Below, piece by piece: positions 1 to 6,981 of a DNA stretch of 6,981 nt. Origin of the DNA: a virus; UHGV virus genome UHGV-0211273. One strand, given 5' to 3'. Each line of letters opens with the position of its first letter. Position 1 is the first letter of the stretch. A program made the position numbers and the translations under genes. Under the pieces are notes generated by a model. That model searched no databases, had not been told where the DNA came from, and was given only the letters and a program-made list of their open reading frames with translations.

Positions 1-108
1 CTGTGCGTGTTCTGCCGCCGACACAAGCACGTACCCACCACACTGCGATGCAGGCTCCCCGGTGGGTACAAGCGTCCCCTCAGCTGTCAGAGACACGCAC
101 ACGGCCAT
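1..108 (-). CDS. 5' part of an 85-aa minor coat (pVII/pIX-position) protein; continues across the junction at 6981
   Basis: ATG at 108, 3 nt after the ssb stop; 36 open codons MAVCVSLTAEGTLVPTGEPASQCGGYVLVSAAEHAQ ending exactly at base 1. Confidence 0.8.
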   Translation of the reverse strand, partial: MAVCVSLTAEGTLVPTGEPASQCGGYVLVSAAEHAQ

Positions 109-111
109 GGC

Positions 112-414
112 TTAAGCCTGAGCAGCCGGGCGCACGGGCGCCTTCGACAGCGGGCGCAGCACTGTGAACTTGCTCAGCGAGGCCACGCCCTTGTTGATCT
201 GGAGCATGGACTCGACATCGAACTCGTAATCGCCGGGCGGGTAGCCGGGCTGGCCGTCCTGGAGGCGGACGTCATACGGGTAAGCGAAGCCATCCGATTC
301 AAGGCGTGCCTTCTGCTTGCGGGTGGTGTAGCTGATCTGCTCACCCTTGTTGCCCTCGAACGTGCCGCCGCGCTCTTCGATTTCGGCTTTCAGGACGGTT
401 ACCTTGATGCTCAT
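112..414 (-). CDS. gV: Single-stranded DNA-binding protein (gene V-like), 100 aa
   Basis: Size and position directly after rep; YPPGDY motif and beta-rich pattern typical of inovirus pV; SD-like AAGGGG upstream. Confidence 0.88.
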   Translation of the reverse strand: MSIKVTVLKAEIEERGGTFEGNKGEQISYTTRKQKARLESDGFAYPYDVRLQDGQPGYPPGDYEFDVESMLQINKGVASLSKFTVLRPLSKAPVRPAAQA

Positions 415-2076: not shown

Positions 2077-2550
2077 ATGGACTGGAATGACTTCTTTGAG
2101 CGGACCCGCGTAGCGGCCAAGGTCGAGAGCTATTCAAAGCTGGCGCCGCTGCTGGGAATTACAGATGGCGCAATCGGCCACTACCGCATGGGCAGGCGTG
2201 TGCCGCAGGTGTGGGTGGTGGCGGATGCGCTCCGTATCCAAGGGCATCCGGAGCCTGAAAAGCAGGCAATTGAGATCATGAAACGTGCGGCGCTGACCTC
2301 GCCGGAGCGTACCTTCTGGAAGCGCTTAGCGGCGACGGCAATGGCGCTATGCCTAGCTGTTGGCTTCGCTCTGCCCCACAAGGCTCAGGCGGCGGTCACG
2401 GGCTTCGATAACGCCCACGTTGTATACATTATGCGAAATGCTGTATCGACCTTGGCACGGTTCGTCGGCTCCGCGTGGCAATGGCTGGGCCTCTGGCTCG
2501 GCTCTTGCCTGCGTCCTCAATCCCCGGCCAAGGATGAGATCGCGGCATGA
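2077..2550 (+). CDS. HTH transcriptional repressor (DUF3693-like), 157 aa, containing attP
   Basis: HTH-like SYSKLAPLLGITDGAIGHYRMGRRVP; FWKRLA motif; SD GAGG at 2068-2071; divergent from the rep operon. Confidence 0.82.
   Translation: MDWNDFFERTRVAAKVESYSKLAPLLGITDGAIGHYRMGRRVPQVWVVADALRIQGHPEPEKQAIEIMKRAALTSPERTFWKRLAATAMALCLAVGFALPHKAQAAVTGFDNAHVVYIMRNAVSTLARFVGSAWQWLGLWLGSCLRPQSPAKDEIAA
2412..2439 (-). other. dif-like attP (XerCD site)
   Basis: Minus strand ATTTCGCATAA-TGTATA-CAACGTGGGCG: good XerC arm, canonical central hexamer, degenerate XerD arm. Plus strand TATACATTATGCGAA (2423-2437) matches the core I recall for Xanthomonas inovirus attP sites (Cf1c/XacF1). Confidence 0.88.
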
Positions 2551-2927
2551 TTGAGTTTGACCCGCACCAACGTATCGACTTGACCGGCCCTTGGGCCGGT
2601 TTTTCTTTCCTCGGTGATCGCCTGATCACCCCCGAAGGCCGCGAGCTGCTTCCCGAAGATCTGGCCTGGCTGTCACTCACCGCCTGCCAAGCGCAGGAAT
2701 GGCGCCGGATGATGGAAACTGCGCGCTCGAGGCCGTCGATCGACAGTTCCAGAAATGCGCGCAATCGCGATGCCGGCATCCGCCATCATCCTGCCACTGT
2801 CGTCAATCTGCGAGACGTGGTGAGCCGGCGCAAACAGCGTTCGGCGGTGGTGATGGCTGGCCCTGACGCCGAGCCACCCGCAGCAGACCTACCGGCGCCG
2901 GGGCCAAGGCGCCGCGAGCGCGTGTGA
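2547..2927 (+). CDS. DUF3653-family phage protein (XafT-like candidate Xer activator), 126 aa
   Basis: Motif GPWAGFSF..DRLITPEGREL.PEDL; ATGA overlap with the repressor stop. Confidence 0.78.
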   Translation: MIEFDPHQRIDLTGPWAGFSFLGDRLITPEGRELLPEDLAWLSLTACQAQEWRRMMETARSRPSIDSSRNARNRDAGIRHHPATVVNLRDVVSRRKQRSAVVMAGPDAEPPAADLPAPGPRRRERV

Positions 2928-2963: not shown

Positions 2964-3371
2964 TCATTGCTCGCGGCAGCGCAGCCATTCGCCCTTGGCA
3001 TTTCGCAACTGTTCCCAGCCGTTGTTTAGGCGGCGCATTGCGGTGCCCCCCATACAGGCAGCGCCCAGCTGCTTTGCCTCGGCGCTCCCGTAGGCTGGCA
3101 TGCGAACAATCTCGCTCGATGGCGTTGGTAACCCTTGGCGACGCGCCTCGCCCTGTATCAGGGATCGCTCAATTTCCGCGCAATAGAGCCGGATGCGCGG
3201 ATCAAGGTGTTGCTGGCATTTCAGCGGCTCAGCGCCAAGGTTGCTCGCCTTCGGTGTTGGCGGCGTGTACCTGGACGGTGGCTGTGGACCGGTGGCCGAG
3301 CGTAGTTGTTGCGCATGCGCAGGTGCCCACAGCAGCAGTAGAGCCAGCACTAAGCCTGATCGAATGTCCAT
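2964..3371 (-). CDS. Secreted/periplasmic protein of unknown function, 135 aa
   Basis: Signal peptide MDIRSGLVLALLLLWAPAHA-QQ; Pro-rich linker; four Cys; follows zot. Confidence 0.78.
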   Translation of the reverse strand: MDIRSGLVLALLLLWAPAHAQQLRSATGPQPPSRYTPPTPKASNLGAEPLKCQQHLDPRIRLYCAEIERSLIQGEARRQGLPTPSSEIVRMPAYGSAEAKQLGAACMGGTAMRRLNNGWEQLRNAKGEWLRCREQ

Positions 3372-3413
3372 TTCGCCCCCAAGGTTCGGGGGCATGGTAT
3401 CCCATTGCGAAAA

Positions 3414-4706
3414 TCAGAAGCTCGCCGGATATGGCGGCGTCTCTGGGAACGTGCCCAAGGGGCGCTTCCCAACTGCAATTAGGGTGCTCCCGTTCGCCGC
3501 GGCGGTGGTCGGCTGTGTCTCGCTCGCGCTCGTCACAGGCGACCCCGCCGCAGCCTTTATGCGCGCGGTCGTCGCATCGGACTGCTCGCCAAACGGGTCT
3601 ACGGGCCAAGTCGTGGCAATGATCTCGTGCCCCTTAGCGCTCAGTAACACGCCGAATTCGGTTCGCCTCACAGACCAGCCCAGCGCCCACAGCTGCTCAG
3701 TGGTGAATCGATCAAGTACTTGCCCGCCGCCTGACGCGCGAAACTCCACGATGTCGCGCTGGCCGTACCACCCGGCGTGCCTCGCCCTGGCATTGGCCGC
3801 CATGTCCAGAATGTACTGAACGCCCGCAGGCAGCTTCTCCTTCGTCTTGGGCGTCTCGGCAACCTTTGTGACCACCGTGGCCGGCTGAGCACCCGGCGCG
3901 TGCGCTATCGCGGGAATTGCGGCCTTCTGCGTCTTGACAACTTCCTTTAGCTTGCTTTCCTCGCCCGTTGAACCGTCTGCGAAGAAGAACCGCAGGAACA
4001 TCACCACGCCAATGACAAGTGCAAGGCCCATTACGATTGATGGGCCGCGCAGGGTTTTCCACAGAGTGCGCGTGTTTCCCTTGTAGACCTCATTGGACTC
4101 AATGCCCGGCTGTACGCCGTGGTAGAGCTCCCAGATGGCCGGATCGTACTTGCGGACTTCTGTGCCCACCGTTTCGTATTTGCCGGTGCCAGTGGCCGCA
4201 TAGAACCGCACCGAGTAGCGCTGATCGGACCCCAGCGCGTCGAGCTTGGTATACGTGTTCTTCTTCGCCATGCGGCGGATGATCAGGCGGTGCAGGTCTT
4301 TGCAGTCCTGCGAAATGATCACCATGTCCAAGCTGATATGGCCGTGCTTGGCGAAGAAGTTTGCTGCGCGCTCGGGCAGATTGGCACGATTGGTCGGCCA
4401 GTACTCGTGCGCCTCATCGATCACGATCAGTGCGTGCTTCTCGATATGCGGGAACGAAATGGCGCCATCGTTGTCGGTATCGCATACGCACCAGTCAACC
4501 ACTTCCTTGTCGCCCATCACGTGCACCAGCTCGCGCACCTCTTCTTCAGGCATGCCCAGGTGCGCGGCGATCTTGTCGAGGCTCTCCCCTACCCCGTTTA
4601 GGCGCACGTAGACATGGCGCTTGGCGCGCAATGCAGGAAGGATGTGATGCAGAACCGCCTCGTAGCTCTTGCCGCTGCGCGGCAAGCCTTCATGGCCGAA
4701 GATCAT
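3414..4706 (-). CDS. zot: Zot/pI assembly (morphogenesis) ATPase, 430 aa
   Basis: Walker A GLPRSGKS, Walker B LIVIDEAH, IISQ motif, single TM SIVMGLALVIGVVMFLRFFF; ATG 4706 is 4 nt after the pVI stop. Confidence 0.95.
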   Translation of the reverse strand: MIFGHEGLPRSGKSYEAVLHHILPALRAKRHVYVRLNGVGESLDKIAAHLGMPEEEVRELVHVMGDKEVVDWCVCDTDNDGAISFPHIEKHALIVIDEAHEYWPTNRANLPERAANFFAKHGHISLDMVIISQDCKDLHRLIIRRMAKKNTYTKLDALGSDQRYSVRFYAATGTGKYETVGTEVRKYDPAIWELYHGVQPGIESNEVYKGNTRTLWKTLRGPSIVMGLALVIGVVMFLRFFFADGSTGEESKLKEVVKTQKAAIPAIAHAPGAQPATVVTKVAETPKTKEKLPAGVQYILDMAANARARHAGWYGQRDIVEFRASGGGQVLDRFTTEQLWALGWSVRRTEFGVLLSAKGHEIIATTWPVDPFGEQSDATTARIKAAAGSPVTSASETQPTTAAANGSTLIAVGKRPLGTFPETPPYPASF

Positions 4707-4710
4707 TTCG

Positions 4711-5109
4711 TTACGTCCACTGGAAGAGAGTGAGGAACACCCGCACAAGGCGGAATACAAGTGCAGCCGTCAGTACTGCGATAGCCTCACCGACGCGCAG
4801 CTGGGCAACGATGAAGGCGGTCCACGGCCCCGCAGCGTTAAGCATTGCGCAGAAGCTGATCTGCGACAGGAAATCAGGCGCTGGAATGAGGTACACGATG
4901 GCCTTGACGAACGACAGCACAAGCTCGATGAAGTCGGTCTGCAGATCCGTCATGAAGTCGGAGAAGTCCGCCCACAACGACGTGATCTGTTCCTTTGCCC
5001 ACGTGGTAAGGGCGGTGACCGGCCCTACCCCATCGGCATATGCCCACGAAGCTGACAGCACGAGCACAATCAGCGCAGCAGCCAGCACGATCAGATGATT
5101 GCGCCTCAT
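4711..5109 (-). CDS. gVI: pVI-like minor coat protein (DUF2523-like), 132 aa
   Basis: Lies between pIII and zot; hydrophobic with C-terminal FRLVRVFL; ATGA overlap with the pIII stop. Confidence 0.82.
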   Translation of the reverse strand: MRRNHLIVLAAALIVLVLSASWAYADGVGPVTALTTWAKEQITSLWADFSDFMTDLQTDFIELVLSFVKAIVYLIPAPDFLSQISFCAMLNAAGPWTAFIVAQLRVGEAIAVLTAALVFRLVRVFLTLFQWT

Positions 5110-6101
5110 AGCAGTGCCCACCTCAGCGCCACGATGCCCATGCCTGCAAGGAAGACAAATCCGGCGTACTGGAACAGCTGTAGCAATGGGCCAGAGCACA
5201 GCGAGGCCAGGTCAAACTTGCCTGCGTACTGTCCACCATCCCACGTTGCAGTCGGACAAGTGCCACCGCCTGTGCAGCTGCCGAAGAAGCCTTTGACCTT
5301 CGACAAGATCGGGGCGCCTTCAATGGCCGTCTTGAACTCCGCTATCACCTGCTGAACCGTCTTGCCGGACTTCTTGTAGAGGCGCCCTGTCGTTGGTCCC
5401 GGCGCCCCTCCGTCACCGCCCTCGCCCGTTCCCGGGCCCGGTCCGGGCCCCGCACAGCCATCCGGGTCTTTGCAATCACCATCCCCGTCGCCGTCCCCAT
5501 CACCATCACCATCACCATCACCGGGCCCGGTGCCACCGCCGCCATCACCGCCCCCGCCGTCACCTCCACCATCGCCACCCCCGTCACCGCCGCCGTCACC
5601 TGGACCGGTTCCGCCTCCATCTCCCCCGCCTTCACCCGGGTCGGGCGTAGTAGGCGCAGGGTGATCGTCTGTCGTGCAGGTGGCACCGGTGGGAGAGAAG
5701 AGGCGCCCGGTTGGCGACTGTGCATAGAGCGAGCCACTGTATGCGCAACCATCGCTGCAAACGCTGTCGAGGCCGGTGCTACCGCCCCCCTTCCAACTGG
5801 TTTCCTCAGGTCGCGCAGAGCACACGCCGCTGTAGTAGAACGACTCCACCGCAATCTGGCGGTAGTTGACGCATTCGGCGCCCGTAATGCCACCGACAAA
5901 GGTGGTAGGTCCAGATGCAAGCACACAAGCTGCATAGCCAGGGCGACCCGCCGCCTGTCGTTGCGAGTAGGCCATTGCCGCAGCGTAGGCCTTACCTTGA
6001 TCGCATTCTGACTCAGATCGGCACGGCTCAGCAGCACGGACGCCCATGGGCATCCAGTAGCTGCCTAGCAGTACTGCTATCAGCAGTATCAGGCGTGTCA
6101 C
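5106..6101 (-). CDS. gIII: pIII-like adsorption protein, 331 aa
   Basis: Signal peptide; Cys-rich N-terminal domain; long Gly/Asp linker; C-terminal domain ending in a TM anchor; GTG start. Confidence 0.9.
   Translation of the reverse strand: MTRLILLIAVLLGSYWMPMGVRAAEPCRSESECDQGKAYAAAMAYSQRQAAGRPGYAACVLASGPTTFVGGITGAECVNYRQIAVESFYYSGVCSARPEETSWKGGGSTGLDSVCSDGCAYSGSLYAQSPTGRLFSPTGATCTTDDHPAPTTPDPGEGGGDGGGTGPGDGGGDGGGDGGGDGGGGDGGGGTGPGDGDGDGDGDGDGDGDCKDPDGCAGPGPGPGTGEGGDGGAPGPTTGRLYKKSGKTVQQVIAEFKTAIEGAPILSKVKGFFGSCTGGGTCPTATWDGGQYAGKFDLASLCSGPLLQLFQYAGFVFLAGMGIVALRWALL
5395..5640 (-). repeat. Low-complexity coding repeats (GDGGG, GD, GPG linker of pIII)
   Basis: (CCATCA)4 at 5497-5520 and degenerate Gly/Asp codon repeats; boundaries approximate. 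Confidence 0.8.
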
Positions 6102-6181
6102 TGGCTGGCCTCATTGAATGCCAGGGCGACCGCATGACCAGCAAGACCGCCAATGAACGCAAAGACCATGCACACAAGCAT
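6098..6181 (-). CDS. 27-aa hydrophobic peptide, candidate pVII/pIX-like minor coat protein (not in ORF track)
   Basis: MLVCMVFAFIGGLAGHAVALAFNEASQ; SD GGAG 5 nt upstream; GTGA overlap with the pIII start. Confidence 0.68.
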   Translation of the reverse strand: MLVCMVFAFIGGLAGHAVALAFNEASQ

Positions 6182-6183
6182 CG

Positions 6184-6453
6184 TCACTCCTCCCTTTCCG
6201 GTGCGCCGCAGTAGACACACTCGCCGCCGTCATAGTCATGGCCGGTGTCAGCGCACACGGCCTCTTCAACCTCGCCCGCCTCGTCGTCGGCGTGTTCGTC
6301 CGCGTCCTGGTCCTCGCGGTCCTCAAAGAAGCCTGCGATCTTGTCGACACACCACCGTCCGAACCAAGGGAGTGCCATCAGCGTGCCGGCACCGACAATT
6401 GCTGCAACCACCTGTGCGACGGATAGCCCTAGGAATACCCCACTGAAGTCCAT
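6184..6453 (-). CDS. Major-coat-protein paralog with acidic Cys/His C-terminal extension, 89 aa
   Basis: First 44 aa align without gaps to the major coat protein (20/44 identical by hand count); tail has 20 D/E in 46 aa and C-x4-H-x6-C-x2-C. Confidence 0.85.
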   Translation of the reverse strand: MDFSGVFLGLSVAQVVAAIVGAGTLMALPWFGRWCVDKIAGFFEDREDQDADEHADDEAGEVEEAVCADTGHDYDGGECVYCGAPEREE

Positions 6454-6462
6454 CACCCACCC

Positions 6463-6600
6463 CTAGTAGTCGATGACGGCGCGGCACTCCATGCACCACA
6501 GGTTCCCGTCGTCCAACACGGTCACGTCATCGCCACCACACTCAGGGCACCAATCGTCTTGGCACTCATCGGGGCTCACGTCATCGGGCTGTGTCTGCAT
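6463..6600 (-). CDS. Acidic zinc-ribbon microprotein, 45 aa (not in ORF track)
   Basis: MQTQPDDVSPDECQDDWCPECGGDDVTVLDDGNLWCMECRAVIDY; CPEC-x14-CMEC; fills the gap between the two coat-like genes. Confidence 0.75.
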   Translation of the reverse strand: MQTQPDDVSPDECQDDWCPECGGDDVTVLDDGNLWCMECRAVIDY

Positions 6601-6607
6601 AGGAATC

Positions 6608-6627
6608 GGGGCCGGTTTCCCAGCCCC
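6608..6627 (-). promoter_or_regulatory. GAAA-tetraloop hairpin downstream of the major coat gene (partial terminator, mRNA stabiliser or RBS-bridging element)
   Basis: GGGGCTGG-GAAA-CCGGCCCC, 8-bp stem with one G-U pair, followed by GATTCCT-ATG. Confidence 0.6.
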
Positions 6628-6650
6628 TCCCCGTCACAATTCTCCCGCGA

Positions 6651-6785
6651 TCAGCGGAAGAAGGTGGCGACCTTGTTGGTCGCCCAGCGGGCAAAGCCCG
6701 GGGATGCCTTGATGGCACCTGCGCTGATGATTGCGCTGACTGCGCTGGCGGCTGCGAGGCCGGTCAGAATGTCGCCGAAGTCCAT
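6651..6785 (-). CDS. gVIII: Major coat protein pVIII, 44 aa, no signal peptide (not in ORF track)
   Basis: MDFGDILTGLAAASAVSAIISAGAIKASPGFARWATNKVATFFR: acidic N-terminus, hydrophobic core, basic C-terminus; strongest SD (AAAGGAG); followed by a hairpin. Confidence 0.9.
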   Translation of the reverse strand: MDFGDILTGLAAASAVSAIISAGAIKASPGFARWATNKVATFFR

Positions 6786-6831: not shown

Positions 6832-6981
6832 TCAATCCCGCTCTGTACTGACCGACTTCACGACGGCGCCCACGATGTAGCCCAGCACGTTCAGTGCGAG
6901 CACCAGCGTGAACACCCCCGAGAACCAACCAGTGGCCACTTCCGGTTCGGGCCACTGGAATAGATCGATGAGGATTGAGGC
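6832..6981 (-). CDS. 3' part of the 85-aa minor coat protein that begins at 108
   Basis: ASILIDLFQWPEPEVATGWFSGVFTLVLALNVLGYIVGAVVKSVSTERD-stop; C-terminal TM segment; frame starts exactly at 6981. Confidence 0.8.
   Translation of the reverse strand, partial: ASILIDLFQWPEPEVATGWFSGVFTLVLALNVLGYIVGAVVKSVSTERD

Follow-up and report, generated by a model that had tools for sequence, protein, structure and literature searches.

A second coat gene with an acidic tail

Sequence comparison confirmed that the window (the whole 6,981-nt stretch of DNA that was analyzed) encodes, beside its major coat protein pVIII, a real and selected pVIII paralog of undescribed function, which appears to have kept the packing surface of a coat protein while exchanging its basic C-terminus for an acidic tail. 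The window is a complete phiSMA7-like inovirus, with its circular genome opened inside a gene VII-like ORF. Its minus strand carries Rep, pV, gene VII-like, coat, pIII, pVI, and pI genes, and its pI shares 99.3% identity with the pI of Stenotrophomonas phage phiSMA7 (Table 1).

Table 1. Features of the inovirus window
Feature	Position	Strand	Remarks
Coat paralog (phiSMA7 ORF89 homolog), 89 aa	6184..6453	-	Coat-like helix residues 1-43, acidic linker, predicted zinc knuckle C67/H72/C79/C82
ORF45, 45-aa acidic CxxC-x14-CxxC zinc-ribbon miniprotein without membrane segment	6463..6600	-	PF08271 match below cut-off
Major coat protein pVIII, 44 aa, leaderless	6651..6785	-	PF25631 and phiLf coat protein B match
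GC-rich hairpin 3' of gene VIII, here without U-run	6608..6627	-	z -3.07 for 91-nt stretch
27-aa hydrophobic ORF 5' of gene III	6098..6181	-	Marks downstream edge of insert
pIII-like adsorption protein, Gly/Asp-rich linker	5106..6101	-	Gene order matches phiLf
pVI-like minor coat protein	4711..5109	-	phrog_974
pI morphogenesis ATPase (Zot family)	3414..4706	-	Module follows pI lineage
Gene VII-like ORF, 85 aa, split by window ends	3' part 6832..6981, 5' part 1-108	-	
pV ssDNA-binding protein	112..414	-	Exchanged among module-bearing phages
DUF3653 protein with WAGFxF motif, likely PSB15 packaging-signal-binding homolog	2547-2927	+	

The paralog ORF is intact on the minus strand, and the plus frame has stops. 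As the original prediction had claimed, its product aligns without gaps to that of the 44-aa ORF, with 20 of 44 residues identical (BLASTP, E = 2e-8), a score reached by 0 of 100,000 shuffled paralog heads (maximum 14). Both proteins match PF25631 (Inovirus_capsid) at residues 3–43, with 73.6 bits for the paralog and 68.7 bits for the 44-aa protein at a curated cut-off of 27 bits. The paralog covers the whole model (1–41 of 41), and all members of the family alignment A6 (38/38) match it at E ≤ 0.01. The 44-aa ORF also matches the annotated phiLf major coat protein B (52% identity, weak E-value) and, given both matches, is the true pVIII.

The closest described relative of the paralog is phiSMA7 ORF89 (CDF66325.1; PHROG 29356), which is the same gene (93% identity over 89 aa, identical gene order); among 50,697 annotated phage records the paralog matches phiSMA7 alone (2 records). 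The phiSMA7 record labels ORF89 “hypothetical; putative capsid protein” and ORF45 also “putative capsid protein”, and leaves the 44-aa coat gene unannotated, so that an annotation fix is due: two genes bear the capsid name while the real coat gene is missing. A search of largely open-access literature returned no account of an acid-tailed coat paralog; within that literature the earlier statement that no function had been described holds. The phiSMA7 paper may discuss ORF89, and a survey that notes many short inovirus membrane proteins without assignment may list this family (PMC6813254).

An AlphaFold model of the paralog (pLDDT 81, pTM 0.36) has one helix at residues 4–48, with pLDDT >90 for residues 11–40, then a linker predicted with low confidence and a small hairpin knuckle. 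The predicted fold, a single short helix with a hydrophobic core, is that of a pVIII. The minor coat families pIII, pVI, pVII, and pIX gave no match to the paralog, which matches coat-type families alone, and pIII-, pVI-, and pVII-like genes stand separately in the window. Foldseek with the model returned 0 matches at E ≤ 0.001, and ESM Atlas returned the paralog’s own family alone. A weak search of longer proteins with the coat as query found no match, a result contradicted by the profile search described below.

Residues kept and lost relative to the coat

Residues 1–43 of the paralog are homologous to the PF25631 major coats (phiLf coat protein B and the window’s pVIII), and the proteins share the leaderless, one-helix layout. 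In 30 distinct pairs of coat and paralog heads, 14 positions are identical between the two proteins in at least 87% of pairs (G9, L10, A18, I19, A22, G23, A27, P29, F31, R33, W34, K38, F42, and F43), mainly small residues and the F-x-R-W...FF aromatic end. Judged from the alignment, this set probably exceeds what a plain membrane anchor would need.

The paralog differs from these coats in being a second copy that has lost K26 and the terminal Arg, has exchanged N37 for D/E, and bears an acidic tail of 34–58 residues. Across 42 distinct coat/paralog pairs, which are relatives and not independent events, the coat is net +4 from residue 20 to its end and carries K26 in every pair; K26 occurs in 0/42 paralogs, D/E stands at position 37 in 38/42, residues 20–43 are net +1 in 34/42, and the tails are net -11 to -24. 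The short, net-basic, lumen-lining C-terminus of a pVIII is therefore lacking, and the paralog was not filed as a major coat protein. In f1 and IKe, the basic C-termini are turned towards the DNA, and the shell is packed by hydrophobic residues (PMC10175506, PMC6431161). By analogy, the pattern of kept and lost residues suggests that the paralog still packs as a coat but has been selected against wrapping DNA. Since R33 and K38 are kept, DNA contact would be reduced, not abolished. The uncharged run is at least 24 residues long in 29/30 paralogs, compared with 17–23 in the coat, a difference suggestive of retention in the membrane, although on the Hessa scale paralog and coat are told apart in 17/30 only.

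The kept packing residues, together with the “putative capsid protein” label in phiSMA7, would also suit a minor virion subunit, present in a few copies in the filament or at a tip junction, its tail threaded outside or placed where DNA is absent. Engineered C-terminal display on M13 pVIII exists (PMC6100724, PMC4177731), and long C-terminal pIII fusions pass between helices in mixed virions (PMC10175506). The M13 scaffolds resemble the paralog in joining a coat helix to a C-terminal extension, but they are artificial, and the displayed peptides described there are 7–9 residues only. The IKe lumen is ~22 Å wide (PMC6431161), and the longer uncharged run points to retention in the membrane, with the reservation on the Hessa scale noted above. 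The assertion that so large a polyanion cannot fit the lumen is not airtight, in view of the short peptides on M13 pVIII, although 46 acidic-rich residues are far larger than those. Basic second coats found in the same genomic slot (see below) look structural and lend this reading further support; on balance we consider it unlikely. If the paralog does enter virions, it would be a natural large C-terminal pVIII display.

Acidic tail, metal-ligand motif, and selection

The tail (residues 44–89) is 46 aa long, with 20 D/E, 2 basic residues, and a net charge of -18, and it contains the motif C67-x4-H72-x6-C79-x2-C82; the acid count and motif are as first described. The four ligands are invariant in 31/31 distinct close tails and fall into two pairs, the arrangement of a zinc ribbon or knuckle, and the tail may accordingly be a zinc-binding one. 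It has no Pfam match, and the best Foldseek hit stands at E 4.5, with zinc fingers among the weak rows. Four-cysteine zinc ribbons (TFIIB-type PF08271, RanBP2-type) have a similar ligand pattern and appear as weak Pfam and Foldseek look-alikes; the paralog differs in scoring below curated cut-offs, in the Foldseek threshold given above, and in its fusion to a coat helix.

Most of the distant tails read CxxC..CxxC with varied spacing, the His form being a variant of one branch, and three contigs (L095, L096, and L203) carry acidic tails without any ligands. Throughout the 33 distant clusters with such tails (see below), acidity is the constant feature and ligand spacing varies. Metal binding, prominent in the original prediction, is consistent with the close relatives and is probably not the key feature of the family. 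A weak resemblance of the tail to ORF45 (hhalign 82%, 26 columns, mainly the cysteines) is no more than suggestive of a derivation of the tail from an ORF45 copy, in which a coat + ribbon unit was duplicated and then fused.

Purifying selection acts on both halves of the paralog. Pooled pairwise dN/dS estimates over related sequences from 32 close loci are 0.042 (95% 0.020–0.074) for the coat-like part and 0.113 (95% 0.060–0.189) for the tail, beside 0.129 for ORF45, 0.157 for the coat, and 0.015 for the 27-aa ORF. Synonymous divergence is high, and no internal stops occur in 29–31 distinct sequences of the close loci. With ligands, reading frame, and constraint all retained in these loci, the tail shows none of the decay that would have counted against its importance, and a functionless relic of duplication, for which dN/dS values of 0.04–0.11 would be hard to explain, is scarcely credible.

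A two-gene insert behind gene VIII

The paralog and ORF45 form an insert between gene VIII and the 27-aa membrane gene that precedes gene III. ORF45, which the original prediction had not mentioned, separates the two coat genes and accompanies the paralog. The coat–ORF45–paralog order recurs in a set of 305 loci that bear the coat or ORF45 and represent 68 distinct protein signatures, with many near-copies. ORF45 without a downstream coat-like gene was seen at contig ends or gaps only, and in one genome (G350) a divergent zinc-ribbon ORF replaces it. ESM Atlas with ORF45 returned generic small zinc ribbons. A 1.8-kb contig from a Kitasatospora assembly (L049) carries a near-identical module, probably through contamination.

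Relatives lacking the insert (L080, L089, L091, L107, phiLf, and Pseudomonas phage 97-1) have the order coat, hairpin, 25–27-aa membrane ORF, and pIII. There the small ORF adjoins the hairpin, which identifies it as the downstream edge of the insert. Module-less relatives keep the 27-aa ORF, which both the phiSMA7 and the phiLf record leave unannotated; it is a candidate for the missing minor coat (pIX-like) gene.

The hairpin behind gene VIII occurs in insert-bearing and insert-less relatives alike. A promoter and terminator scan returned 0 of each, and the hairpin gets no terminator call. In Ff phages a terminator follows gene VIII; by this analogy, and from its position behind the hairpin, the insert is probably made at a lower level than the coat. 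In the stretch 6600–6632 (minus strand), ORF45 starts 7 nt past the hairpin, and the sole purine-rich run resembling a ribosome site lies at the hairpin’s 5' arm; folding of the hairpin may control or enable ORF45 translation. Read-through or frameshifting from gene VIII into ORF45 was considered and rejected: the spacer is 49–57 nt in the loci inspected and keeps no fixed frame.

The strict pairing with ORF45 and the varied tails might instead reflect a host-directed module made up of a soluble and a membrane-tethered acidic zinc ribbon, which would imitate DNA or serve as bait for a host sensor of defence or stress that recognizes coat protein or ssDNA at the membrane. In phage counter-defence, small acidic proteins are a recurring theme. 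Neither the paralog nor ORF45 has a PADLOC match, the library consisting of defence and not counter-defence proteins; stable inheritance and the strong constraint on coat-packing residues also speak against such a module, and we hold it to be improbable.

What the module travels with

Co-inheritance was followed with pI or the coat, not the insert, as query. The module is present in 41/41 pI-matched loci that reach the coat region (12/53 stop short) and in 50/56 coat-matched loci; of the remaining six, one is cut by a gap and five have a single coat. Module-bearing phages have pI proteins 52–100% identical to that of the window, and all others ≤47%. On a pI tree of 39 rows, the 15 module-bearing ones all lie to one side of a branch (support 81/79; 1 change), a clade of moderate support in a tree whose root rests on a long branch. 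The cytoplasmic net charge of pI, tried as a separator, gave no clear split (-1 to +3 with the module, +1 to +6 without).

The pV and Rep proteins of module-bearing phages range from identical to barely alignable with those of the window, and the at least five barely alignable pV types among them are also found in module-less phages. This fits a partner of the module in the structural operon, though physical linkage alone can explain it. A tethered DNA mimic that specifically strips pV would present its polyanion where displacement of pV takes place, at the predicted cytoplasmic face (PMC10175506). The swapping of pV types under the module argues against a pV-specific partner, and we rate this role very unlikely; a purely electrostatic action on any pV would be compatible with the swapping. 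Of the three roles first offered for the paralog, pV displacement thus fares poorly and an assembly factor is best supported.

The third, a coat decoy against other inoviruses, would either stop an incoming related virion from uncoating at the inner membrane or poison the assembly of a co-resident phage. Related phages lack the module, and tail sequences diverge fast. phiSMA6 and phiSMA7 share a host strain, and two inovirus genes have been described as giving superinfection exclusion of tailed phages (PMC8228603, PMC6813254); two module-bearing prophages lie on one contig (L029 and L030). The paralog, however, branches within its own coat type, so that the phage’s own assembly should be hit first, and unlike a patchy conflict gene it shows zero losses in the 41 informative loci. 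A decoy is therefore unlikely in our estimate; if the paralog does block rivals, it would represent a new exclusion mechanism.

Breadth, origins, and reuse of the slot

A profile search of 1.84 billion representatives gave 70 clusters: 33 with a coat helix and an acidic tail of at least 30 residues, 21 plain coats, 13 with other tails, and 3 without a coat segment. The profile itself favours acidic tails, and genomic context is limited to the few clusters matched to loci (e.g., P0015 in L269). Among the 33 acidic-tail clusters, 28 have at least four Cys/His ligands and 5 do not. Set aside were L052, L206, and L207 (chance), P0053 and P0065 (no coat segment), and P0006, P0008, P0011, and P0012 (truncated or chimeric ends).

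On a tree of coat-type proteins, 25/27 acidic paralogs fall in one starred clade, with L100 and L209 outside; a single origin of all acidic paralogs is not rejected (p-AU 0.83, 13 rows). Within the genus of genome G001, 13/147 genomes matched, which we read as 4 with the acidic module, 6 with a short basic-ended second coat, and 3 with a single coat. The basic-ended second coats (49–52 aa) occupy the same slot (~1685–1850, coat orientation) in six genomes (L330, L331, L332, L336, L217, and L212). They appear to have been lost in G425 and G510, which suggests that the phages can do without genes of this kind. Two genomes of the wider order (G827 and G789) have a longer coat-like protein in this slot, with an acidic tail of 96–103 residues and at most one cysteine; these long, ligand-less proteins belong to a different pI clade. 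Such proteins, seen at L344 (1696–2220) and L345 (1637–2203), also have a Cys-containing N-terminal extension.

Second coat genes are common in these phages, and the acidic tail seems to have originated two or more times. More tentatively, Lysobacterales inoviruses may more than once have turned a coat copy into an “anti-coat”, which packs as a coat but bears its own DNA-like polyanion; as switches derived from the capsid, which initiate, halt, or sabotage the extrusion of filaments, such proteins would make up a class so far undescribed.

A possible role in gating filament assembly

The reading we favour, at somewhat less than an even chance, is that the paralog packs in small numbers with pVIII in the inner membrane, at the site where pI extrudes the filament, and that its cytoplasmic polyanion there stands in for DNA and gates the start or end of filament assembly. 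The gene is a duplicate of the coat gene, and its product joins a coat-like helix to an acidic, predicted zinc-ribbon tail. Made in few copies, the protein would sit in the inner membrane N-out/C-in and pack against normal pVIII at the extrusion site. Its tail might contact the basic C-termini of pVIII, which in f1 form the lining of the cavity that houses the DNA and probably engage it at the membrane (PMC10175506), or a basic membrane-proximal stretch of pI. With polyanion in place of DNA, assembly would be gated without wrapping of a genome, and ORF45 would be a soluble counterpart of the tail. Coat topology and the thiol ligands make a cytoplasmic tail probable. A leaderless coat might, in principle, be flipped by a strongly acidic end, as with Pf3.

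What the comparisons show is in line with gating: the paralog is homologous to the coat, is under purifying selection, has consistently lost positive charge while keeping the packing residues, is inherited together with pI but not with pV, and lies behind the gene VIII hairpin. Against it, relatives of the same coat type assemble without the module (L080, L089, L091, G289, and phiLf), so the paralog is not a universal assembly part.

The proposed role has a likeness in the PSB15/thioredoxin checkpoint of Xanthomonas inoviruses, a charge-driven, non-virion control of assembly (10.1101/2024.03.19.585677, PMC5408679): as suggested for the paralog, a factor outside the virion acts by charge at the inner membrane. 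PSB15 is unlike the paralog in being basic, in binding DNA and lipid, and in not being coat-derived. A PSB15-like gene occurs with and without the module, many loci being too short in that region for a call. The hand-over of DNA from pV to coat and the start and stop of extrusion are poorly resolved, least of all in integrative phages without Ff genes, and a reversed-charge coat paralog found in a wide clade and in an isolated phage, phiSMA7, offers a ready genetic handle on the hand-over step.

Other features of the window

The dif core sequence quoted for phiLf (10.1101/2023.12.30.573655) was found at positions 2423–2437. This dif-like attP core lies within a regulator ORF (2077–2550), so that integration would alter the C-terminus of that protein. 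A 143-aa ORF 3' of pI (2964–3395, minus strand) has a signal-peptide-like start and four cysteines, is patchy in relatives, and gave no Pfam or PHROG match. Three near-copies of a ~14-nt motif at 1985–2045, between the divergent regulator and Rep-side genes, are a possible operator.
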